From assembly GCF_024223415.1 (NCBI RefSeq), contig NZ_CP100500.1: a DNA stretch of 64,000 nucleotides; one strand, 5' to 3'. This stretch comes from Escherichia coli. GTDB lineage: Bacteria > Pseudomonadota > Gammaproteobacteria > Enterobacterales > Enterobacteriaceae. Shown piece by piece: positions 3,214 to 58,252 of this stretch (positions are counted from its first letter, which is position 1; each line of letters starts with the position of its first letter). Under the pieces are notes generated by a model. That model had not been told where the DNA came from and made no database searches. It saw only the letters and a list, made by a program, of their open reading frames with translations. A program made the translations under genes and the position numbers.

Positions 3214-5595
3214 ATGGATACGCCAGACGAAAAGGAACGCATTACATTTCCGCAAGTATCACGACGTAGTTTTTTACAAGCGACTTCCGCGCTTATCACT
3301 TTGCCTTTTATTTCTTCTACCGCAAAGGCGCAATCCCCAGATGCGTCGCCAGAAGTTACAGCTCCAGTAGCTGATAAAGTCGTGCCCACCTGTAGCACAT
3401 TTGACTGCGGTGGTAAGTGCGATATTCGGGCGCATATGCGCGACGGCGTGGTGACGCAAATTACCACACTTCCCGATAACGAACTCGATTCACAAATGCC
3501 GATTATGCGCGCCTGTGTTCGTGGTCGCGGCTATCGTAAATTTGTTTATCATCCTGACCGTTTGAAATATCCGATGAAGCGGGTAGGTAAACGAGGGGAG
3601 GGAAGATTTGAGCGTATCTCATGGGATGAGGCGACGACCTTAATTGCCGATAAACTGAAAAGGATCACGCAACAATATGGCCCGGCTTCACGTTATGTCC
3701 ATGTCGGGACGGCTGTTTCTGGTGGAACATTTTCTGGCGATGCGATGGCGCGTCGGCTGTTAAATTTAACCGGTGGTTATCTTGAATATTATCACTCAGT
3801 TAGTCTGGGTAATACTGCGGCCGCCACGCCTTACACGTATGGCGTGGCGGCCAGCGGTAACTCGATGGATACTCTTCTGGATACCAAACTGGTGATCCTC
3901 TGGGGGCATAACCCAACGGAAACCATATTCGGTCACACCAATTACTATTTTCAAAAAATGAAGCAAAACGGTACACGTTTTATCGTGGTGGATCCGCGCT
4001 ATTCCGACACCGTATCTTCACTTGCCGATCAGTGGATCCCGCTGTTGCCGACCACGGACAATGCGTTGATGGACGCGATGATGTACGTCATTATCAGCGA
4101 GAATCTCCACGATAAGACATTTATCGACACATATATTCTCGGTTTTGATGAAAACTCTATGCCAGAAGGCGTACCAGCCAACGAATCGTTGGTTGCCTAC
4201 CTTTTTGGCGCAAAAGATGGGATACACAAAACGCCGGAATGGGCAGAAAAAATTACCCACGTTCCAGCACAATCCATTCGTCAACTGGCACGCGATTACG
4301 CCACTACAAAACCCGCAGCGTTGATTCAGGGATGGGGGCCACAGCGACATATTTGCGGCGAACGCACCGCCCGAGGTTCAACTTTACTGGCCTCGATTAC
4401 CGGTAACGTCGGCATCAAAGGTGGCTGGGCGGCAGGTTACGGCGGTAGTTCTAATCGTAAATTCTGCGTTGGACCAGATATGCCAGAAAATCCGGTACAA
4501 GCGAAAATCTCGATTATGAACTGGATGCAGGCGGCGGATGATGCTTCTAAAGTTACGCCGCAAGATGGGCTTAAAGGTGTCGATAAACTCGACAGTAATA
4601 TCCGCCTGCTGTTCTCACTGGCAGGTAATTATCTGGCGAACCAGAACCCGGACGTCCACCAGGCCGCGAAGCTCCTTGAAGACGAATCTAAAATAGAATT
4701 CATCGTACTCAGCGATCTGTTCATGACTCCGAGCGCGAAATATGCCGATGTGTTGCTGCCGGAAACCAGCTTTATGGAACGCTGGAATATCGGCGAAACA
4801 TGGGGAACTGCGAGCTATCTTATTCTGTCAGAAAAACTGATTGAGCCGGATTTTGAACGTCGCACCGATTATGACTGGTTGCGTGACGTGGCGAAAAAAC
4901 TGGGTGTCGAAGCCGAGTTCAGTCAAGGACGTGATGAGAAGCAATGGATCGAGCATATCTGGGAGCAAACTCGTCTGGCGATGCCGGATGAAAATTTGCC
5001 GGACTTCGCGACCCTGCAAAAAACACGTCGACATCTTTTCAAAAGCGCGCCGCACATCGCTTTCGAAGCAAATATTCGCGATCCGCAGAATAATCCTTTC
5101 CCGACGCCTTCCGGCAAAATTGAGATCTTCTCTAAGCGTCTTTTTGATATGCAAGATCCAGAAATTCCCGCGCTTTCGCACTATGTCCCTGCCTTTGAAG
5201 GGCCAGAAGATAAACTGACGGCGAAATACCCGCTGCAGCTCATCACCTGGAAAGGGAAAAACCGTGCTAATTCCACCCAGTATGCTAACCCGTGGCTGCA
5301 AGAAGTTCAGACGCAAAAACTCTGGCTGAATCCGCAAGATGCAAAACAGCGCGGGATTAGCGAAGGAGATAGCGTAAAAATTTATAACGATCGTGGTGTG
5401 AGCATTATCCCGGTGGAAATAACCCCCCGTATCATCCCTGGCGTAGTTGCTATGCAGGCGGGGGCATGGTGGCAACCGGATGCACAAGGTATCGATCGCG
5501 GAGGCTGTGCCAATGTACTGAGTTCGACCCGCATTACGGCGCTGGCGAAAGGGAATTCGCATCAAACAATGCTGGTGGAGGTTGAGAAAGCATGA
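3214..5595 (+). CDS. Tat-exported molybdopterin oxidoreductase catalytic subunit, DMSO reductase family (DmsA/YnfE-like), substrate unknown
   Basis: 793-aa ORF with twin-arginine motif SRRSFLQ near the N-terminus, then a CxxxxCxxxC...C cysteine cluster typical of DmsA-type FeS sites; stop overlaps the next start (ATGA at 5592-5595). Confidence 0.85.
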   Translation: MDTPDEKERITFPQVSRRSFLQATSALITLPFISSTAKAQSPDASPEVTAPVADKVVPTCSTFDCGGKCDIRAHMRDGVVTQITTLPDNELDSQMPIMRACVRGRGYRKFVYHPDRLKYPMKRVGKRGEGRFERISWDEATTLIADKLKRITQQYGPASRYVHVGTAVSGGTFSGDAMARRLLNLTGGYLEYYHSVSLGNTAAATPYTYGVAASGNSMDTLLDTKLVILWGHNPTETIFGHTNYYFQKMKQNGTRFIVVDPRYSDTVSSLADQWIPLLPTTDNALMDAMMYVIISENLHDKTFIDTYILGFDENSMPEGVPANESLVAYLFGAKDGIHKTPEWAEKITHVPAQSIRQLARDYATTKPAALIQGWGPQRHICGERTARGSTLLASITGNVGIKGGWAAGYGGSSNRKFCVGPDMPENPVQAKISIMNWMQAADDASKVTPQDGLKGVDKLDSNIRLLFSLAGNYLANQNPDVHQAAKLLEDESKIEFIVLSDLFMTPSAKYADVLLPETSFMERWNIGETWGTASYLILSEKLIEPDFERRTDYDWLRDVAKKLGVEAEFSQGRDEKQWIEHIWEQTRLAMPDENLPDFATLQKTRRHLFKSAPHIAFEANIRDPQNNPFPTPSGKIEIFSKRLFDMQDPEIPALSHYVPAFEGPEDKLTAKYPLQLITWKGKNRANSTQYANPWLQEVQTQKLWLNPQDAKQRGISEGDSVKIYNDRGVSIIPVEITPRIIPGVVAMQAGAWWQPDAQGIDRGGCANVLSSTRITALAKGNSHQTMLVEVEKA

Positions 5596-6221
5596 GCCAA
5601 TTTAAAGAATTTGCATCTGTCAGCGACAAACAATTAGGGTTCTTTATTGACTCTTCGCGTTGTTCGGGCTGTAAAGCGTGTCAGGTGGCCTGTAAAGACA
5701 AAAACAACCTTGAGGTTGGGCGACGTTTTCGCCGCGTGTATGAAGTGAACGGCGGTGGCTTCATCGCCACTGGAGAGGGCGGTGTGAGTCATAATGTCTT
5801 TGCTTATACCCTTTCTGTTTCCTGTAACCATTGCGCGGATCCGATCTGTACCAAAAATTGCCCGACGATAGCGATGCATAAGCGTCCCGGAGACGGCATT
5901 GTGCGCGTGAATACTGATAAGTGCGTCGGTTGCGGTTACTGCGCCTGGTCCTGTCCTTACGGCGCACCACAAATGAATGAGCAGACCGGGCAGATGTCGA
6001 AATGCGATTTCTGTATTGATCTGCAAGCTAAAGGAGAACAACCCATTTGCGTGGCAACGTGCCCGTTGGGGGCGATTAAGTTCGGCCCTATTGATGAGTT
6101 GCGTGAAAAGTATGGCGATGTCAGTGATGTGAAAGGTTTACCTGATTCGTCGATTACGCAGCCAAATCTGGTGATTAAACCGCATCAGGGCGCGGAAAAG
6201 GAGGCGTCACATCATGCATGA
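5592..6221 (+). CDS. Four-cluster 4Fe-4S ferredoxin electron-transfer subunit (DmsB-like)
   Basis: 209-aa ORF with several CxxCxxCxxxCP motifs; translationally coupled to both neighbours. Confidence 0.85.
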   Translation: MSQFKEFASVSDKQLGFFIDSSRCSGCKACQVACKDKNNLEVGRRFRRVYEVNGGGFIATGEGGVSHNVFAYTLSVSCNHCADPICTKNCPTIAMHKRPGDGIVRVNTDKCVGCGYCAWSCPYGAPQMNEQTGQMSKCDFCIDLQAKGEQPICVATCPLGAIKFGPIDELREKYGDVSDVKGLPDSSITQPNLVIKPHQGAEKEASHHA

Positions 6222-7035
6222 ATTACCGTTAATGGCTTTTACGCTGTTGTTACAGGCATCGGTCGGTATGACGTTGTGGCTGGCGTTTCTTCATCGTCAT
6301 ATTTTAATCACCTCCAGCGCCCGCCCGGTTATGCGGCCGCCATTACTGTTGGCTTTTTTGGCAGGTGCCGTAGGGTTACTAATTTCTACCTTACATCTGG
6401 GTTATCCACTTAATGCGATGCATGCGCTAAGCCACTTTTCCAGTTCATGGCTGAGTCGGGAAATTATCTTTGGTGCGCTGTATCTGGCGCTATTGGGTTT
6501 ATCCACATTACTGGTCATGTTACGCAAAGGCGGCTGGCAACTCCTGCTTATGCTAGCGGCAGTGGTCGGGATTGTTGATGTTTTCTGCATGGCGCAAGTT
6601 TACATCCATACGTCGATTATCACCTGGCAGCATTACAACACACTGATTATGTTCTTAGGTACAGTGGGAATTCTCGGTTCAGCGCTGGTAGCAGTGTTTC
6701 GTATTAGCGGAATTTTGCCGCAGATTGATGCCCTGCGTAATGGATGCGTGTTGGTGATCGCTCTCCTGGTTCTGTTGCGTTTGTTGGTTCAGCCGTTGTG
6801 GATAGGGGATTTAACGGCAAATGCGATGCAGATAGCCACATTGCCACATGCGCCATTAGCGATGCTGGGACAGTTAAAACCCATACTGACACTAAGCTGG
6901 GGAATTTCCGTCATTGGGATGATGTTCTTTGCTGTCGGTGGTTGTAAAAAGAATATCCCGGCGGCGTTATTCGGTAGCGTAATGCTAGTGGGGAGTGAAG
7001 TTATGCTGCGTTTTGTCTTTTTTAGTATCGGCTAA
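6214..7035 (+). CDS. Polytopic membrane anchor subunit (DmsC-like)
   Basis: 273-aa highly hydrophobic ORF, overlaps the upstream gene by 8 nt and the downstream gene by 1 nt (TAATG); position matches the DmsC role. Confidence 0.7.
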   Translation: MHELPLMAFTLLLQASVGMTLWLAFLHRHILITSSARPVMRPPLLLAFLAGAVGLLISTLHLGYPLNAMHALSHFSSSWLSREIIFGALYLALLGLSTLLVMLRKGGWQLLLMLAAVVGIVDVFCMAQVYIHTSIITWQHYNTLIMFLGTVGILGSALVAVFRISGILPQIDALRNGCVLVIALLVLLRLLVQPLWIGDLTANAMQIATLPHAPLAMLGQLKPILTLSWGISVIGMMFFAVGGCKKNIPAALFGSVMLVGSEVMLRFVFFSIG

Positions 7036-7889
7036 TGTTAAGTCATAACATAACGATTGGCGCGGAATGCGCGCGCCAACGCTTTCGTTTTGCAACATGT
7101 CATGCCTGTGTCGAGGCTTGCCCGGCACAGGCGCTAACGCTGACAGAAGAGGGCATAGCGGTCGACGCGGAACAATGTATTGAGTGTGCGGTTTGCCAGT
7201 TTATTTGTCCGCAAGAGGCTATTCGTGGCGTTAATTCCCCTTTACGTTATTTTCGCAATCACACCCTGGTCGCACCTTTCACCACTATTGCGCCGACGCT
7301 GGAAGAACTTTTGCTATGGCATAAAGAGCAGGGGATCACAGCGATCGCGATTGATCTGAGTCAGGCGAAGGCATGGGAGCGCGCATTATTGCTGTTAAAC
7401 GAACGCTTACGGCAATATGGCGAGGAAGGCTGGTCTGTGGTATCTCCACATACCAGTGAGGTGAATGTTTCCCGGCGTCGTTTGTTCCATGTGCAGCGTG
7501 CGGATGTTCAGATGATACAAATACAACCAGGATTACGTCGGTTACATTATTTTTGGCCCCAGATTAGTGATGCTCGCCCGATGATGGATCCTCAAAAGTG
7601 TCAGCTTTGCGGTGCATGCTGGCGGGCCTGCGAGCAACAGGTCTTTTCGCTTAACGAAGGCCATTTACAAATCAATGATGCCTTGTGTAACGGATGCCAA
7701 AATTGTATTGCTGTTTGTTTTCATCAGGCAATGACCGTTGAATTGACAATTCTACCTGCAAAAATTGTGAATCTTCATGCTAATCGCAAAGTCTGTAAAA
7801 CCTGTCAAAAATCCTTTCTTACTTTTCAGCAAAATGCGCAAAATTGTCTTTATTGCCAACGTCATCGCTATGGGATGAGAGCACCATAA
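7035..7889 (+). CDS. Cytoplasmic ferredoxin-like protein with four Cys clusters and a C-terminal CxxC...CxxC pair
   Basis: 284-aa ORF without signal peptide; motifs CHACVEACP, CIECAVCQFICP, CQLCGACWRAC, CNGCQNCIAVC and a terminal CKTC...CLYC; coupled to the anchor gene. Confidence 0.7.
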   Translation: MLSHNITIGAECARQRFRFATCHACVEACPAQALTLTEEGIAVDAEQCIECAVCQFICPQEAIRGVNSPLRYFRNHTLVAPFTTIAPTLEELLLWHKEQGITAIAIDLSQAKAWERALLLLNERLRQYGEEGWSVVSPHTSEVNVSRRRLFHVQRADVQMIQIQPGLRRLHYFWPQISDARPMMDPQKCQLCGACWRACEQQVFSLNEGHLQINDALCNGCQNCIAVCFHQAMTVELTILPAKIVNLHANRKVCKTCQKSFLTFQQNAQNCLYCQRHRYGMRAP

Positions 7890-11089: not shown

Positions 11090-12208
11090 ATGCATAACCA
11101 GGCTCCAATTCAACGTAGAAAATCAACACGTATTTACGTTGGGAATGTGCCGATTGGCGATGGTGCTCCCATCGCCGTACAGTCCATGACCAATACGCGT
11201 ACGACAGATGTCGAAGCAACGGTCAATCAAATCAAGGCGCTGGAACGCGTTGGCGCTGATATCGTCCGTGTCTCCGTACCGACGATGGACGCGGCAGAAG
11301 CGTTCAAACTCATCAAACAGCAGGTTAACGTGCCGCTGGTGGCTGACATCCACTTCGACTATCGCATTGCGCTGAAAGTAGCGGAATACGGCGTCGATTG
11401 TCTGCGTATTAACCCTGGCAATATCGGTAATGAAGAGCGTATTCGCATGGTGGTTGACTGTGCGCGCGATAAAAACATTCCGATCCGTATTGGCGTTAAC
11501 GCCGGATCGCTGGAAAAAGATCTGCAAGAAAAGTATGGCGAACCGACGCCGCAGGCGTTGCTGGAATCCGCCATGCGCCATGTTGATCATCTCGATCGCC
11601 TGAACTTCGATCAGTTCAAAGTCAGCGTGAAAGCGTCTGACGTCTTCCTCGCTGTTGAGTCTTATCGTTTGCTGGCAAAACAAATCGATCAGCCGCTGCA
11701 TCTGGGGATCACCGAAGCGGGTGGCGCGCGCAGCGGGGCAGTAAAATCCGCCATTGGTTTAGGTCTGCTGCTGTCTGAAGGCATCGGCGACACGCTGCGC
11801 GTATCACTGGCGGCCGATCCGGTCGAAGAGATCAAAGTCGGTTTCGATATTTTGAAATCGCTGCGTATCCGTTCGCGAGGGATCAACTTCATCGCCTGCC
11901 CGACCTGTTCGCGTCAGGAATTTGATGTTATCGGTACGGTTAACGCGCTGGAGCAACGCCTGGAAGATATCATCACTCCGATGGACGTTTCGATTATCGG
12001 CTGCGTGGTGAATGGCCCAGGTGAGGCGCTGGTTTCTACACTCGGCGTCACCGGCGGCAACAAGAAAAGCGGCCTCTATGAAGATGGCGTGCGCAAAGAC
12101 CGTCTGGACAACAACGATATGATCGACCAGCTGGAAGCACGCATTCGTGCGAAAGCCAGTCAGCTGGACGAAGCGCGTCGAATTGACGTTCAGCAGGTTG
12201 AAAAATAA
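11090..12208 (+). CDS. ispG: 4-hydroxy-3-methylbut-2-enyl diphosphate synthase
   Basis: 372-aa ORF recognised as IspG (GcpE). Confidence 0.95.
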
Positions 12209-12318
12209 TAACGTGATGGGAAGCGCCTCGCTTCCCGTGTATGATTGAACCCGCATAGCTCCCGAAACATTGAGGGAAGCGTTGAGGGTTCATTTTTATA
12301 TTCAGAAAGAGAATAAAC

Positions 12319-13593
12319 GTGGCAAAAAACATTCAAGCCATTCGCGGCATGAACGATTACCTGCCTGGCGAAACGGCCATCTGGCAGCGCATTGAAGGCA
12401 CACTGAAAAACGTGCTCGGCAGCTACGGTTACAGTGAAATCCGCTTGCCGATTGTAGAGCAGACCCCGCTATTCAAACGTGCGATTGGTGAAGTCACCGA
12501 CGTGGTTGAAAAAGAGATGTACACCTTTGAGGATCGCAATGGCGACAGCCTGACTCTGCGCCCTGAAGGGACGGCGGGCTGTGTACGCGCCGGCATCGAG
12601 CATGGTCTTCTGTACAATCAGGAACAGCGTCTGTGGTATATCGGGCCGATGTTCCGTCACGAGCGTCCGCAGAAAGGGCGTTATCGTCAGTTCCATCAGT
12701 TGGGCTGCGAAGTTTTCGGTCTGCAAGGTCCGGATATCGACGCTGAACTGATTATGCTCACCGCCCGCTGGTGGCGCGCGCTGGGTATTTCCGAGCACGT
12801 AACTCTTGAGCTGAATTCTATCGGTTCGCTGGAAGCACGCGCCAATTACCGCGATGCGCTGGTGGCATTCCTTGAGCAGCATAAAGAAAAGCTGGACGAA
12901 GACTGCAAACGCCGCATGTACACTAACCCGCTGCGCGTGCTGGATTCAAAAAATCCGGAAGTGCAGGCGCTTCTCAACGACGCTCCGGCATTAGGTGATT
13001 ATCTGGACGAGGAATCTCGTGAGCATTTTGCCGGTCTGTGCAAACTGCTTGAGAGCGCGGGGATCGCTTACACCGTAAACCAGCGTCTGGTGCGTGGTCT
13101 GGATTACTATAACCGTACCGTTTTCGAGTGGGTGACTAACAGTCTCGGCTCCCAGGGCACCGTGTGTGCAGGCGGTCGTTATGACGGTCTTGTGGAACAA
13201 CTGGGCGGCCGTGCAACACCGGCTGTCGGTTTTGCGATGGGCCTCGAACGTCTTGTATTGTTAGTACAGGCCGTTAATCCGGAATTTAAAGCCGATCCTG
13301 TTGTCGATATATACCTGGTGGCTTCAGGTGCTGATACACAATCTGCGGCTATGGCATTAGCTGAGCGTCTGCGTGATGAATTACCGGGCGTGAAATTGAT
13401 GACCAACCACGGCGGCGGCAACTTTAAGAAACAGTTTGCCCGTGCTGATAAATGGGGTGCCCGCGTTGCTGTGGTGCTGGGTGAGTCTGAAGTGGCTAAC
13501 GGCACAGCAGTAGTGAAGGATTTGCGCTCTGGTGAGCAAACGGCAGTTGCGCAGGATAGCGTAGCCGCGCATTTGCGCACGTTACTGGGTTAA
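12319..13593 (+). CDS. hisS: Histidine--tRNA ligase
   Basis: 424-aa ORF starting at GTG 12319 ([10 protein letters not shown]), recognised as HisS. Confidence 0.95.
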
Positions 13594-13610: not shown

Positions 13611-14231
13611 GTGGAAATTTACGAGAACGAAAACGACCAGGTAGAAGCGGTTAAACGCTTTTTTGCTGAAAATGGCAAAGCACTGGCTGTTGGGGTGATT
13701 TTGGGCGTTGGCGCACTGATTGGCTGGCGCTACTGGAACAGCCATCAGGTTGATTCTGCACGCTCCGCTTCTCTTGCCTATCAAAATGCGGTTACCGCAG
13801 TGAGCGAAGGCAAACCGGATAGCATCCCGGCGGCGGAAAAATTTGCTGCTGAAAATAAAAATACTTATGGTGCGCTGGCTTCTTTGGAACTTGCGCAGCA
13901 ATTTGTTGACAAAAATGAACTAGAGAAAGCTGCCGCCCAGTTACAACAGGGGCTGGCAGACACGAGCGATGAAAATCTCAAAGCCGTGATAAATCTGCGT
14001 CTTGCTCGCGTTCAGGTACAGCTCAAGCAGGCTGATGCCGCGCTGAAAACCCTTGATACCATCAAAGGTGAAGGGTGGGCTGCCATTGTTGCCGACCTGC
14101 GTGGTGAAGCATTGCTGAGCAAAGGTGATAAGCAAGGTGCGCGTAGTGCATGGGAAGCAGGCGTGAAAAGCGATGTTACTCCGGCACTGAGCGAAATGAT
14201 GCAGATGAAAATTAATAATTTGTCCATCTGA
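13611..14231 (+). CDS. yfgM: Inner-membrane anchored TPR-like protein YfgM
   Basis: 206-aa ORF starting at GTG; sequence and position between hisS and bamB. Confidence 0.9.
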   Translation: MEIYENENDQVEAVKRFFAENGKALAVGVILGVGALIGWRYWNSHQVDSARSASLAYQNAVTAVSEGKPDSIPAAEKFAAENKNTYGALASLELAQQFVDKNELEKAAAQLQQGLADTSDENLKAVINLRLARVQVQLKQADAALKTLDTIKGEGWAAIVADLRGEALLSKGDKQGARSAWEAGVKSDVTPALSEMMQMKINNLSI

Positions 14232-22582: not shown

Positions 22583-23101
22583 TTAGCTCTTTTCAGGACA
22601 TTTGGTATTTGGCTGAATACGCGTTTCGTTATACGTCGTGGTAATAACAACGGCTAAACCTGTCGTAAACTGGCACTCTTTACCCACCTGAGTAGAGGTA
22701 TACACTTTGGTGCCTTCCTTATACGTTAAAGAAACACCTTCCACTAAGGTTTTATCATTCACCATAGAACCCGCTGCCGCGCCTACAGCTCCGCCGCCAA
22801 CTGCACCTGCCGTCGTTCCGGAATTGCTGCCAGACCCGACGTTGTGGCCGATAACACCGCCAGCGACTGCGCCAATAAGCGCGCCGAAGGCTTGTGCGTT
22901 CCGTTTATTTTGGGAGTTGTCTACGGCAACTTTTGCGGGAAGAATGGAAATAATATTAACGGTTTTAGTTTCTTGTTTGGTATTCAGTTGATCGGTTTGA
23001 TAAACATCGGCAGCATGATCGTCAGCATTTGACTGGCATCCTGCCAGAGTGAATGACGCTAACATTGCCACAGGTAGAAGACATTTTTTAAATTTCATCA
23101 C
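22583..23101 (-). CDS. yfgH: Outer membrane lipoprotein YfgH (glycine-zipper)
   Basis: 172-aa ORF with lipoprotein signal (LAGC) and Gly-rich GxxxG tract. Confidence 0.85.
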   Translation of the reverse strand: MMKFKKCLLPVAMLASFTLAGCQSNADDHAADVYQTDQLNTKQETKTVNIISILPAKVAVDNSQNKRNAQAFGALIGAVAGGVIGHNVGSGSNSGTTAGAVGGGAVGAAAGSMVNDKTLVEGVSLTYKEGTKVYTSTQVGKECQFTTGLAVVITTTYNETRIQPNTKCPEKS

Positions 23102-23411: not shown

Positions 23412-23603
23412 CTAACGTTGTACCGGTGATTCGACGGAGAGTGTGGATTGCTGAGCTTCTTTTTTGCTCTGATGGTGCTGCCAGGCACCGACGGACGAGT
23501 AGATAAAACGGCCAAAGAAGAAGATAAAGCTGATGAGCAGTACGATACGGGTCATGCGACTGTTAAATCGGTGTCGTTTTCGCATACTGGTTGCCTGACT
23601 CAC
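23412..23603 (-). CDS. yfgG: Small membrane protein YfgG
   Basis: 63-aa ORF with one hydrophobic segment, at the conserved position between yfgH and pdeF. Confidence 0.7.
   Translation of the reverse strand: MSQATSMRKRHRFNSRMTRIVLLISFIFFFGRFIYSSVGAWQHHQSKKEAQQSTLSVESPVQR

Positions 23604-30658: not shown

Positions 30659-30659
<1 letters not shown>
30021..30659 (-). CDS. purN: Phosphoribosylglycinamide formyltransferase 1
   Basis: 212-aa ORF recognised as PurN; start overlaps the purM stop. Confidence 0.95.
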
Positions 30660-31714
<1,055 letters not shown>

Positions 31715-34116: not shown

Positions 34117-34818
34117 CTGAACACACCGGCACAGCTCTCTTTGCCACTTTATCTTCCTGACGACGAAACCTTTGCAAGTTTCTGGCCGGGGGATAACTCC
34201 TCTTTACTGGCCGCGCTGCAAAACGTGCTGCGTCAGGAACATAGCGGTTACATCTATCTCTGGGCACGCGAAGGCGCGGGGCGCAGCCATCTGCTGCACG
34301 CGGCTTGCGCGGAATTGTCGCAGCGTGGCGATGCGGTGGGCTATGTCCCACTGGATAAACGCACCTGGTTTGTTCCGGAAGTGCTCGACGGTATGGAGCA
34401 TTTGTCGCTGGTCTGTATCGACAACATTGAGTGTATTGCAGGTGATGAGTTGTGGGAGATGGCGATTTTCGATCTCTACAATCGAATTCTGGAATCGGGC
34501 AAAACACGGTTGTTGATCACCGGTGATCGTCCACCGCGGCAGTTGAATCTGGGATTACCGGATCTCGCGTCGCGACTCGACTGGGGGCAGATCTACAAAT
34601 TGCAGCCACTTTCTGATGAAGATAAGTTGCAGGCGCTACAGTTACGCGCGCGTTTGCGTGGTTTTGAACTGCCGGAAGATGTGGGGCGTTTCTTGCTGAA
34701 GCGGCTCGACAGAGAAATGCGCACGCTATTTATGACGTTGGATCAGTTGGATCGTGCGTCGATTACCGCGCAACGTAAGCTGACCATTCCGTTTGTGAAA
34801 GAAATTCTGAAGTTGTAG
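34117..34818 (+). CDS. hda: DnaA-inactivating AAA+ protein Hda, initiating at CUG
   Basis: AAA+ ORF; a CTG codon at 34117 with GAGG Shine-Dalgarno about 8 nt upstream gives a 233-aa product beginning (M)[13 protein letters not shown]. Confidence 0.8.
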
Positions 34819-34911: not shown

Positions 34912-35438
34912 TGAACTGCACCCCAAATGTTGGACATAATCTGACATCTGAAGGTGCAGTTTATGAAACATTCATTTGAAGTAAAACTTGCCGCTGTAAA
35001 TCATTACCTGGCCGGTCATGCAGGCATCATTTCTACGGCAAAACTCTTTCAACTTTCTCACACCAGCCTCTCACACTGGATTAATCTTTTTCTTCTTCAC
35101 GGTCCTCAGGCACTGGATTGCAGACACAAGCGTAGCTATTCTCCTGAAGATAAACTTTGCGTGGTTCTTTATGCTCTCGGGCATTCTGAGTCTCTACCCC
35201 GGGTAGCTGCCCGGTTTAACATTCCCAGCCACAACATGGTTAAAAACTGGATAAAAGGCTACCGCAAATCTGGTAATGAGGCCTTTATCAGGCGCAGGAA
35301 GGAGAAAAGCATGACCCGTTCTGATGATACCCATGAAAACGAGGCAAACATGACGCCGGAAGAGATGAAGAATGAGCTGCGTTATCTTCGCGCAGAAAAT
35401 GCATATCTGAAAGCCATGCAGGAGCATCTCCTGGAAAA

Positions 35439-36343
<905 letters not shown>

Positions 36344-44174: not shown

Positions 44175-45890
44175 TTACTTCAGCGGCGAACGGTTACGAT
44201 CAATGCCGTAGCGTTCGATCTCTTTATACGGCACGGTTTTTGACTGGCGCTTGCGCACATCAACCAGCGTCACACGGTCGGTACAGGAGTAGCAGGGATC
44301 AAGGCTACCGATAATCAGCGGTGCGTCAGAAACGGTATTGCCGCGTAGCATGTAACGCAGCACCGGCCAGTTGGCGTAGGTGGCGGCACGACAGCGCCAG
44401 CGGAACAATTTTTGATTATCACCGAGCATGCTCCAGTGCACGTCTTCACCGCGTGGCGCTTCAACAAAGCCGAGTGCGAATGCGTGAGGTTTATAGCTAA
44501 AGCCTTCGGTCAGCAGCGGGGTATCCGGCATGTTGTCGAGGGCAAATTCCAGCATTGCCAGCGAATCAAACGTCTCTTTGACACGGACCATCACGCGGGA
44601 GAAGACATCGCCGCCGGTAAAGGTAAACAGTGTTTTTGGAATATTGCCGTAGTCGGCGTAGGGGTGATCAAAGCGCAAATCACGGGCAAAACCACTGCCG
44701 CGGATCAGCGGTCCTACGGGGCTATAATCACGGGCGATTTGTCGGTCGAGAATGCCAATGCCCTGAGTGCGTTGTTCCATATTCGGCGTGGCAAGCAGCA
44801 TTTCTACCAGCTCCGACACGTCGGCGCGCATCTCGCGCACCAGTTTCAGCGTTTGCAGACGTTGCTCTTTGAGAATATCGCGGCGAACACCACCAATCAG
44901 ATTCAGACCGTAGGTTTTACGCGACCCGGTCAGCAATTCCGCCATTGTCATCGACTTTTCCCGCACGCGGAAAAATTGCATAAAGCCGGTATCAAATCCA
45001 ACAAAATGGCAGGAGAGGCCAAGGTTGAGCAAATGACTGTGTAGCCGTTCGACTTCCAGCAGAATCGAGCGAATGGTATGCGCTCGTTGCGGCACCTCAA
45101 TCCCCAGTGCATTTTCAACCGAGTTGGTATAGGCCACACTGTGGGCAAAACCGCAAATCCCACACACGCGGTCCGATAAGAAGGTCACTTCGTTGTAGCC
45201 CATCCGCGTTTCTGCCAGTTTCTCCATGCCGCGATGGACATAAAACAGGCGGTAATCAGCATCGACAATTTGCTCGCCATCCACAAACAAGCGGAAGTGA
45301 CCCGGTTCATCGGAGGTGATATGCAGCGGGCCGACAGGGATCACCCGCGCATCGCTGTTGCCCTCATTGATAAACGGATACGTTTCGGAATCAGTCGTCG
45401 GTTCAGGGCGCAGTCGATAATCCATCGCATCTTTGCGCAGCGGATGCATATCTTCCGGCCAGTCATCGGGCAACACCAGGCGACGCTGATCCGGCAGGCC
45501 AACCGGAATCAGCCCGTACATATCGCGAATTTCTCGCTCGCCCCAGACCGCGGCAGGGACGCGCGGTGTGACTGACGGAAACTCCCGACTGTCGGCATCG
45601 ACCAGTGCCTTCACCACGATCCAGCATTTTTCGGCCCCTTCCATAGAAAGGGCATAATAAACCGCGTAATGACCGTTAAGTGTCCGCTCGTCGTTGCCAA
45701 ACAGGACCGGAAGCCAGCCATCATGTTGATAATAAAGATACTGTACAACGTCAGGCAGCAGATTGATTTTCACCGTAATGGTGACCTGTTCAGGCGTTTG
45801 TCGCTCTTCATCCAGCACCGCGCCGGGGAACTGCGTTTTCAGGGCGGCGAGAATCGCTTCGCCACGATTTGACGATGAATTAACGTTCAC
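44175..45890 (-). CDS. hyfG: Hydrogenase-4 large (NiFe) subunit
   Basis: NuoC/NuoD-like fusion with C-terminal DPCxxC; start placed at the GTG at 45890 preceded by GGAGA; the ORF-track ATG at 45935 has no Shine-Dalgarno. Confidence 0.85.
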
Positions 45891-53428: not shown

Positions 53429-53899
53429 TCAGGCGTGTTCTTTCAGCCAGTTCAGCACAACGTCGTGGTGATTGCTGGTTTTGAAATCGTCAAAGACATG
53501 TTCGATTTTGCCATCAGCGTCAATCAGGAAGCTGATGCGATGAATACCATCGTAGGTTTTGCCCATGAAGGACTTTTCCCCCCAGACGCCGAATTGTTCG
53601 CACACCTGGTGGTCCTCATCAGACAGGAGCGTAAAGTTAAGCAGCTCTTTTTCCGCAAAACGGGAGAGTTTTTCGGGTTTATCGGTGCTGATACCCAGCA
53701 CATCAACGCCCGCTTTTTTCAACTCATCCATGTTATCGCGTAAGCCGCAGGCCTGTACGGTACAGCCGGGGGTCATGGCTTTCGGGTAGAAATAAACCAG
53801 AACACGCTGTCCCTGGAAGTCGGTCAAATTAACTTGTTCTCCGTCTTGATCCGGCAAGCTAAATTTCGGTGCGGTATCACCGGCTTTCAGTGGATTCAT
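53429..53899 (-). CDS. bcp: Thiol peroxidase Bcp (peroxiredoxin)
   Basis: 156-aa ORF with the peroxiredoxin active-site region (AMTPGCT). Confidence 0.95.
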   Translation of the reverse strand: MNPLKAGDTAPKFSLPDQDGEQVNLTDFQGQRVLVYFYPKAMTPGCTVQACGLRDNMDELKKAGVDVLGISTDKPEKLSRFAEKELLNFTLLSDEDHQVCEQFGVWGEKSFMGKTYDGIHRISFLIDADGKIEHVFDDFKTSNHHDVVLNWLKEHA

Positions 53900-54471
53900 T
53901 ACTTAACTCCATCCTGTTCATCATGTTGGGAATAATTGACGACGTTAATACTGCCTTGTGCATTGAGTTCTGTACATAGGGCTTTGAACGCTTGCTCAAT
54001 ATTTGCTGCGTCCGCAGATGCGGGGCTGTGGGCGGTGATCTGAATATGCAACTGCGCAGCCCGTTCATTTTCAGCAGGTTGCGTGCGCGACACCAGCTCC
54101 GCAATGTTCATATGATGCGCGTCGAAAAGTGCTGTGAAGCGTTCAATTAAATGCGGGGAGTCTGCCACATCGACCTGAACCCAGACAGATGCTGGCATTG
54201 GCGGACGCGGACGCGCCGTCGTGCGCTTCATCACGATTAAAAGATCCAGTTCTGCACCTTTCAACGGTAACGTTGATTCAATCAGAGTGATGGCATTCCA
54301 TGAACCGGAAAGCAGCATGATAAACGTGAACTCTTCTCCCAGCATCGCCAGGCGACTGTCTTCAATATTACAGCCGCAACTACTGACATGACGGGTGATG
54401 GTGTTCACAATTCCAGGGCGATCGGCACCCAACGCAGTGATCACCAGATAATGTTGCGATGACAGTGTCAA
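53899..54471 (-). CDS. gcvR: Glycine cleavage system transcriptional repressor GcvR, TTG start
   Basis: 190-aa product reading (M)TLSSQHYLVITALGADRPGIV from a TTG at 54469-54471 with AAGGA about 9 nt upstream; stop overlaps the bcp start. Confidence 0.85.
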   Translation of the reverse strand: MTLSSQHYLVITALGADRPGIVNTITRHVSSCGCNIEDSRLAMLGEEFTFIMLLSGSWNAITLIESTLPLKGAELDLLIVMKRTTARPRPPMPASVWVQVDVADSPHLIERFTALFDAHHMNIAELVSRTQPAENERAAQLHIQITAHSPASADAANIEQAFKALCTELNAQGSINVVNYSQHDEQDGVK

Positions 54472-54616
54472 ACTGGTTATTCCTTTAAGGGGTGAGTTGT
54501 TCTTAAGGAAAGCATAAAAAAAACATGCATACAACAATCAGAACGGTTCTGTCTGCTTGCTTTTAATGCCATACCAAACGTACCATTGAGACACTTGTTT
54601 GCACAGAGGATGGCCC

Positions 54617-55495
54617 ATGTTCACGGGAAGTATTGTCGCGATTGTTACTCCGATGGATGAAAAAGGTAATGTCTGTCGGGCTAGCTTGAAAAAACTGATT
54701 GATTATCATGTCGCCAGCGGTACTTCGGCGATCGTTTCTGTTGGCACCACTGGCGAGTCCGCTACCTTAAATCATGACGAACATGCTGATGTGGTGATGA
54801 TGACGCTGGAGCTGGCTGACGGGCGCATTCCGGTGATTGCCGGGACCGGTGCTAACGCTACTGCGGAAGCCATTAGCCTGACGCAGCGCTTCAATGACAG
54901 TGGTATCGTCGGCTGCCTGACGGTAACCCCTTACTACAATCGTCCGTCGCAAGAAGGTTTGTATCAGCATTTCAAAGCCATCGCTGAGCATACTGACCTG
55001 CCGCAAATTCTGTATAATGTGCCGTCCCGTACTGGCTGCGATCTGCTCCCGGAAACGGTGGGCCGTCTGGCGAAAGTAAAAAATATTATCGGAATCAAAG
55101 AGGCAACAGGGAACTTAACGCGTGTAAACCAGATCAAAGAGCTGGTTTCAGATGATTTTGTTCTGCTGAGCGGCGATGATGCGAGCGCGCTGGACTTCAT
55201 GCAATTAGGCGGTCATGGGGTTATTTCCGTTACGGCTAACGTCGCAGCGCGTGATATGGCCCAGATGTGCAAACTGGCAGCAGAAGGGCATTTTGCCGAG
55301 GCACGCGTTATTAATCAGCGTCTGATGCCATTACACAACAAACTATTTGTCGAACCCAATCCAATCCCGGTGAAATGGGCATGTAAGGAACTGGGTCTTG
55401 TGGCGACCGATACGCTGCGCCTGCCAATGACACCAATCACCGACAGTGGTCGTGAGACGGTCAGAGCGGCGCTTAAGCATGCCGGTTTGCTGTAA
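54617..55495 (+). CDS. dapA: 4-hydroxy-tetrahydrodipicolinate synthase
   Basis: 292-aa product from [17 protein letters not shown] with GAGGA Shine-Dalgarno. Confidence 0.95.
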
Positions 55496-57626: not shown

Positions 57627-57854
57627 ATGGAAACTACTGTATTTTTAAGTAATCGCAGTCAGGCCGTCAGATTACCGAAAGCGGTCGCTCTGCCAGAGGA
57701 TGTTAAGAAAGTAGAAATTATTGCGATTGGTCGTACAAGAATCATCACTCCCGCCGGTGAGTCCTGGGACAGTTGGTTTGATGGCGAAAATGTGAGTGCG
57801 GATTTTATGGATATCCGTGATCAACCCGCAATGCAGGAAAGGGAATCATTCTGA
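57627..57854 (+). CDS. vapB: VapB antitoxin (AbrB/SpoVT-type DNA-binding fold)
   Basis: 75-aa product from METTVFLSNRSQAVRLPKAV with a strong GGGGG Shine-Dalgarno; stop overlaps the vapC start (TGATG). Confidence 0.8.
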   Translation: METTVFLSNRSQAVRLPKAVALPEDVKKVEIIAIGRTRIITPAGESWDSWFDGENVSADFMDIRDQPAMQERESF

Positions 57855-58252
57855 TGCTGAAATTCATGCTGGATACCAATATCTGTATTTTCACTATTAA
57901 GAATAAACCAGTACATGTCAGAGAGCGGTTTAACCTGAATTCTGGCCGGATGTGTATAAGTTCTGTAACATTGATGGAGCTTATCTATGGGGCAGAAAAA
58001 AGTCAGATGCCAGAACGCAATTTGGCGGTGATTGAAGGTTTCGTATCTCGTTTGGAAGTGCTTGATTATGATAGTGCTGCTGCGACGCATACTGGGCAAA
58101 TCAGGGCCGAGCTTGCCCGGCAGGGAAGGCCTGTTGGACCTTTTGACCAGATGATAGCGGGACATGCTCGCAGTCGCGGTTTGATTGTGGTTACCAACAA
58201 TACCCGAGAGTTTGAGCGAGTGGCGGGAATCAGACTAGAAGATTGGAGCTAA
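57854..58252 (+). CDS. vapC: VapC PIN-domain ribonuclease toxin
   Basis: 132-aa ORF starting MLKFMLDTNICIF with conserved acidic PIN residues; closely resembles the enteric VapC/MvpT family as I recall it. Confidence 0.85.
   Translation: MLKFMLDTNICIFTIKNKPVHVRERFNLNSGRMCISSVTLMELIYGAEKSQMPERNLAVIEGFVSRLEVLDYDSAAATHTGQIRAELARQGRPVGPFDQMIAGHARSRGLIVVTNNTREFERVAGIRLEDWS

Follow-up and report, generated by a model that had tools for sequence, protein, structure and literature searches.

Non-ATG start codons of gcvR, purM, hisS and yfgM in an Escherichia coli chromosomal segment agree with the curated K-12 annotation

Gene content and start-codon usage

The window, i.e., the whole stretch of 64,000 nucleotides that was analysed, is a 64-kb part of the E. 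coli chromosome and covers the gene run from yfhM/pbpC to yffB. It could be aligned to strain SCU-316 over about 50 kb at 99.98% identity and to K-12 MG1655 at 98.4-99.0%, in the latter case around 2.59-2.65 Mb and in reverse orientation. A 2.2-kb query around gcvR matched 5,425 of 5,426 complete E. coli genomes, several of them at 100%. Compared with K-12, the strain of the window carries an IS1397 insertion, a DMSO-reductase-like cluster of four genes and a 48-nt indel in hyfG, and none of these differences has a bearing on the start sites. The four-gene cluster (3214-7889, plus strand) is located between pbpC and ndk; it encodes A and B subunits of the DMSO/selenate reductase family, an anchor subunit and a 4Fe-4S dicluster protein, and it is present in SCU-316 and missing from MG1655. 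In addition, a vapB-vapC toxin-antitoxin pair (57627-58252, plus strand) lies between purC and ypfJ, according to the SCU-316 annotation, and may be a further difference from K-12.

Four genes with non-ATG start codons had been singled out from the sequence:

12319-13593, plus strand: hisS, 424 amino acids plus stop, GTG start, without an upstream in-frame start; as in MG1655 and PGAP
13611-14231, plus strand: yfgM, 206 amino acids plus stop, GTG start, strong Shine-Dalgarno sequence GGAAGGAGAAGGA, without an upstream in-frame start; as in MG1655 and PGAP
30659-31696, minus strand: purM, 345 amino acids plus stop, GTG start at 31696-31694; as in MG1655 (b2499) and PGAP
53899-54471, minus strand: gcvR, 190 amino acids plus stop, glycine cleavage system transcriptional repressor with two ACT domains; as in MG1655 (b2479) and PGAP

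The respective entries in the RefSeq annotation of MG1655 are:

gcvR (b2479): 573 nt, TTG start
purM (b2499): 1038 nt, GTG start
hisS (b2514): 1275 nt, GTG start
yfgM (b2513): 621 nt, GTG start

The initial annotation had placed the starts at TTG 54471-54469 (gcvR), GTG 31696-31694 (purM), GTG 12319 (hisS) and GTG 13611 (yfgM), and had named the curated K-12 annotation as a check. All four positions agreed with the MG1655 coordinates, and the lengths and start codons of b2479, b2499, b2514 and b2513 were the same as those of the window genes. The PGAP starts in SCU-316, mapped to the window, were 54471, 31696, 12319 and 13611 for gcvR, purM, hisS and yfgM, respectively. As MG1655 and PGAP give identical starts, the earlier assignments reproduce the known annotation exactly.

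Start codons were counted for the 57 coding sequences that are annotated in SCU-316 (99.98% identical). A script mapped 56 of them onto the window, and the ATG of purN, the one left unmapped, was taken from the SCU-316 sequence. There were 49 ATG starts, six GTG starts (hisS, yfgM, yfgH, yfgG, purM and hyfG), one TTG start (gcvR) and one CTG start (hda). With eight of the 57 genes (14%), an enrichment of non-ATG starts in the window was ruled out. Throughout the genome of E. coli K-12 about 83% of the starts are ATG, 14% GTG and 3% TTG, i.e., about 17% are non-ATG. In an N-terminomics study, 9% of the 688 annotated sites that were detected had a near-cognate start (PMC13245402).

Four of the non-ATG starts had been absent from the initial annotation:

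23099-23101, minus strand: GTG start of yfgH, no upstream alternative
23601-23603, minus strand: GTG start of yfgG, no upstream alternative
34117-34119, plus strand: CTG start of hda, 233 amino acids in MG1655 and PGAP; the longest ORF begins 15 codons upstream, at GTG 34072
45888-45890, minus strand: GTG start of hyfG; the longest ORF begins 15 codons upstream, at ATG 45935

The CTG start of hda is documented (Su'etsugu et al. 2008, as cited in EcoGene 3.0, PMC3531124), and it cannot be proposed by an ORF lister that accepts ATG, GTG and TTG. Both hda and gcvR have a near-cognate start downstream of the start of the longest ORF; the codon used by hda is CTG. The wrong form of Hda with 248 amino acids, which corresponds to the longest ORF, was found on at least 1000 contigs and is far commoner in the databases than wrong GcvR (18 contigs), which makes hda the best example of the over-extension problem in the window. 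Between yfgD and hda there is a 1432-bp insertion (34912-36343), which is missing at the same site in MG1655 and SCU-316. It contains two IS3-type transposase ORFs and matches at 100% elements elsewhere in many E. coli genomes that are annotated as "IS3-like element IS1397 family transposase". The alignments on its two sides share 4 bp, which points to a short duplication of the target.

For hyfG, the predicted anti-Shine-Dalgarno pairing was -6.6 kcal/mol at the GTG vs. -1.5 kcal/mol at the upstream ATG, and the 586-amino-acid form encoded by the longest ORF was found on one contig. The length difference within hyfG is 48 nt, in frame, at about 44688-44726 (minus strand), and HyfG has 571 amino acids here vs. 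555 in MG1655. Either length class is frequent in E. coli.

An upstream in-frame start was present in 22 of the 56 mapped genes, most of them initiated with ATG, e.g., guaB, upp, uraA, dapA and der. The 5' ends of many genes in a longest-ORF track are thus unreliable. The initial annotation had stated that the track over-extends all four genes. This was confirmed for gcvR (22 additional codons) and purM (five additional codons), and it was incorrect for hisS and yfgM, the extension of which is zero because the GTG is the first ATG, GTG or TTG after the upstream in-frame stop. The further expectation that automated callers mis-annotate these N-termini was likewise borne out in part: longer forms of GcvR and PurM have been deposited, but a longer ORF does not exist for hisS and yfgM, and the current NCBI pipeline (PGAP) is right on all four genes in the nearly identical sequence of SCU-316. 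Exact-sequence look-ups, on which all counts of database forms are based, revealed that wrong N-termini persist in both directions, i.e., as extended forms (GcvR with 212, PurM with 350 and Hda with 248 amino acids) and as truncated forms (HisS with 414 and YfgM with 178 amino acids).

The GTG starts of purM, hisS and yfgM

The longest ORF of purM begins at GTG 31711, and GTG 31696-31694 is its sixth codon. The competing start is:

31709-31711, minus strand: upstream in-frame GTG of purM, yields a form of 350 amino acids and overlaps the GGGGA Shine-Dalgarno-like sequence of the real start

At the annotated GTG the predicted anti-Shine-Dalgarno pairing was -5.5 kcal/mol with a spacer of 8 nt, vs. 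-0.2 kcal/mol at the upstream GTG. The latter falls into the ribosome-binding region that belongs to the real start. The 350-amino-acid form was found on 395 contigs vs. at least 1000 contigs for the form with 345 amino acids.

For hisS, the predicted pairing was weak, with -2.9 kcal/mol and a spacer of 6 nt; this is near the background median, vs. -1.7 kcal/mol at the ATG that forms codon 11. A truncated form of HisS that begins at this ATG (414 amino acids) was found on 44 contigs. The intergenic region between ispG and hisS contains the small RNA sroE (Rfam RF00371, 114.6 bits) at 12208-12299 on the plus strand, which stops 19 nt short of the hisS GTG and is the only Rfam family that was detected in the window. 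For yfgM, the pairing was predicted to be -8.8 kcal/mol with a spacer of 8 nt, vs. -2.0 kcal/mol at the GTG of codon 29, from which a truncated form of 178 amino acids is annotated on 360 contigs. The Pfam domains begin at residue 10 of HisS and at residue 15 of YfgM. Including gcvR, the predicted pairing was stronger at each annotated start than at its competing start.

N-terminal proteomics had been proposed as a second check, and it supported three of the four starts. TRAINSPOTTER Table S1 lists peptides with retained and with removed initiator methionine, which begin with the first or second residue of the annotated products of purM, hisS and yfgM (PMC13245402). The N-terminal peptides of PurM include TDKTSLSYK... 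at the annotated GTG (NC_000913:2621197), with Ribo-RET support. HisS is represented by MAKNIQAIR and AKNIQAIR (NC_000913 2640575) and YfgM by MEIYENENDQVEAVKR (NC_000913 2639283), in both cases at the annotated GTG and with Ribo-RET and INRI support (PMC13245402). GcvR is the gene product that was not detected in the table.

The TTG start of gcvR

The longest ORF of gcvR extends from 53899 to 54537 (minus strand) and encodes 212 amino acids from TTG 54537. A second upstream TTG at 54534 would yield 211 amino acids, and codon 23 of the 212-codon frame is TTG 54471-54469. The elements of the annotated start are:

54469-54471, minus strand: gcvR start codon TTG, also TTG in MG1655 and invariant among orthologues
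54481-54485, minus strand: gcvR Shine-Dalgarno sequence AAGGA, read from the sequence, spacer of about 8-9 nt to the TTG

The AAGGA that had been noted upstream of the TTG was indeed found, at 54485-54481. The predicted anti-Shine-Dalgarno pairing was -5.6 kcal/mol at TTG 54471 vs. 0.0 and +0.2 kcal/mol at the two upstream TTGs.

For a comparative analysis, the gcvR locus was aligned from 80 Enterobacteriaceae species with protein identities of 85-99%. The TTG was unchanged in all 80 species (81 of 81 sequences), and the AGGAA core at Shine-Dalgarno distance in front of it was invariant across the 80 aligned sequences. Conservation with a three-base period begins directly after the TTG. When the TTG is read as leucine, the alignment contains 16 columns with invariant leucine; the start column is fixed, and each of the other 15 columns contains three to six synonymous codons. 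Among the 104 columns with an invariant residue, six are restricted to a single codon, and the start TTG is one of these. In 29 of the 80 species an in-frame stop codon is present 8-12 codons upstream of the TTG, and no ATG, GTG or TTG intervenes. In these species the TTG is, therefore, the sole start that keeps the conserved N-terminus of GcvR.

The protein itself has the features of the GcvR family, i.e., an N-terminal ACT_6 domain (PF13740, E = 2.7e-26), a C-terminal ACT domain (PF01842, E = 1e-7), a length of about 190 amino acids and, as in K-12, a location between dapA and bcp. In the 212-amino-acid ORF, ACT_6 begins with residue 29, and the boundaries of domain and homology lie 6-7 residues past the TTG. 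The putative GcvR of V. cholerae (PDB 1U8S, 192 amino acids), a tandem ACT-domain protein and distant orthologue of E. coli GcvR, aligns to residues 6-183 of the 190 residues with E = 5e-39. Its residue 4 aligns to residue 28 of the 212-amino-acid ORF, and the N-terminus of 1U8S is no more than 2-3 residues away from the TTG start.

In TRAINSPOTTER Table S1 (PMC13245402) there is no row for GcvR: b2478 (dapA) is directly followed by b2480 (bcp), and from this gap between consecutive rows it follows that GcvR was simply not detected. The INRI-seq supplements contained no gcvR entry, and a search of the full-text literature for the gcvR start site yielded nothing. The N-terminal sequence implied by TTG 54471 is (M)TLSSQHYLVITALGADR..., and the matching N-terminal peptide would be TLSSQHYLVITALGADRPGIVNTITR, with or without the initiator methionine. 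From the sequence comparisons we infer that the GcvR protein begins at TTG 54471. The exact sequence of 190 amino acids, named GcvR, was found on at least 1000 contigs.

None of the 80 Enterobacteriaceae species has ATG or GTG in place of the TTG. Tentatively, this could mean that a weak start codon is actively selected for and is not a neutral, tolerated variant, a reading that we regard as possible and do not favor. If it were true, the weak TTG may keep GcvR low relative to its partner GcvA, or it may make GcvR synthesis sensitive to discrimination by initiation factors.

Longer reading frames and the sequence upstream of gcvR

Two features were defined in the region upstream of the gcvR start:

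54472-54537, minus strand: spurious 22-codon 5' extension of gcvR; no Shine-Dalgarno sequence, frame-breaking indels and stops in relatives, outside the ACT domain and the homology to 1U8S
54506-54535, minus strand: non-coding block GTTGTATGC..GTTTTTTTTATGCTTTCCT with a fixed T8 tract; conserved with little or no variation in the 80 Enterobacteriaceae sequences

In all four genes an in-frame GTG or TTG marks the 5' limit of the conserved protein. The 30S subunit would be placed at the start codon by a Shine-Dalgarno sequence 6-9 nt before it, and the GTG or TTG would be decoded by fMet-tRNA as initiator methionine. The four are almost certainly ordinary near-cognate starts of well-characterised genes, at positions that the curated K-12 annotation already contains. 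The start sites are real, ordinary and already known, and they do not represent a discovery. Their significance is slight beyond annotation hygiene, as the reference annotation and the current NCBI pipeline are already correct at all four.

The opposite assumption is that the real genes correspond to the longest ORFs, with GcvR starting at TTG 54537 (212 amino acids) or 54534 (211 amino acids) and PurM starting at GTG 31711. Both frames are indeed open in the window, that of gcvR also in Salmonella and many Citrobacter, and the long forms have been deposited: in addition to the PurM contigs mentioned above, the 212-amino-acid GcvR is present on 18 contigs, with EDL933 (AAG57589) and Shigella records among them, the 211-amino-acid form on one, and Salmonella and Citrobacter records also hold 212-amino-acid forms. 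However, as described above, the upstream starts of both genes lack a Shine-Dalgarno sequence by predicted pairing. Experimental N-termini that fit the longer ORFs had been named as the observation that would speak against the annotated starts, but the N-terminal peptides of PurM begin at the downstream GTG, and Table S1 of PMC13245402 contains neither an upstream PurM peptide nor an upstream purM site. The long form of PurM is thus largely refuted. In 29 species stop codons interrupt the extension of gcvR, and upstream of the TTG indels of 1, 5 and 12 nt put it out of frame, even in E. albertii and in some E. coli. Its conservation is contiguous and not three-periodic, and neither the ACT domain nor the solved homologue 1U8S reaches into it. 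Real genes that correspond to the longest ORFs are, therefore, extremely unlikely.

A weaker variant would be dual initiation at gcvR, with TTG 54471 as the main start and a minor, longer transcript from which an N-terminally extended proteoform is made in small amounts. Ghrist and Stauffer reportedly described, in 1998, a transcription start of gcvR about 27 bp upstream of the UUG start codon and a minor upstream transcription start, which could provide such a transcript. Alternative N-terminal proteoforms have been reported for E. coli, with 118 of 806 sites, 17 of them upstream (PMC13245402), but the same table holds no peptide of an extended GcvR. Furthermore, the missing Shine-Dalgarno sequences of the upstream TTGs argue also against this variant, and the extension has not been kept as a reading frame, even within Escherichia. 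Dual initiation is, thus, very unlikely as well, and initiation at TTG 54471 remains the preferred reading for gcvR.

With the protein beginning at TTG 54471, the 22 upstream codons would represent a non-coding 5' UTR and promoter region in the spacer between the divergent genes dapA and gcvR, which happens to be free of stop codons in this strain. Within the conserved block, GTTTTTTTTATGCTTTCCT (54524-54506) is contiguously invariant, without a three-base periodicity, in the 80 aligned sequences, and a -10-like TATGCT is located inside the invariant block at 54516-54511 (minus strand). The block at 54506-54535 is probably the core promoter of gcvR, albeit with an unclear -35 element. A sigma-70 scan of 54350-54750 revealed no promoter on the gcvR strand, and for this reason the promoter call is based on conservation only. 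An Rfam scan detected no RNA family at the gcvR locus, and the Cappable-seq supplements contained no rows near the gcvR coordinates. A genomic SELEX study predicted a gcvR promoter from the sequence, TTAAAA-18-TCTGAT (PMC3946193); its -10 element TCTGAT was not conserved in other species in the 80-sequence alignment. A mutation in the promoter gcvRp is mentioned in an adaptive-evolution paper, the main text of which gives it without coordinates.

Conserved sequence was also observed at the 3' end of gcvR (53946-53976, minus strand). The 9 nt TGTACAGAA at 53976-53968 (minus strand) do not vary at any codon position in the 81 sequences, and roughly 12 nt beyond them a near-invariant GGCAGTATTA follows. 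The two elements resemble a -35 (TGTACA) and a -10 (CAGTAT) sequence that are 17 nt apart. They precede the bcp ATG by about 50-70 nt and may constitute an internal promoter of bcp.
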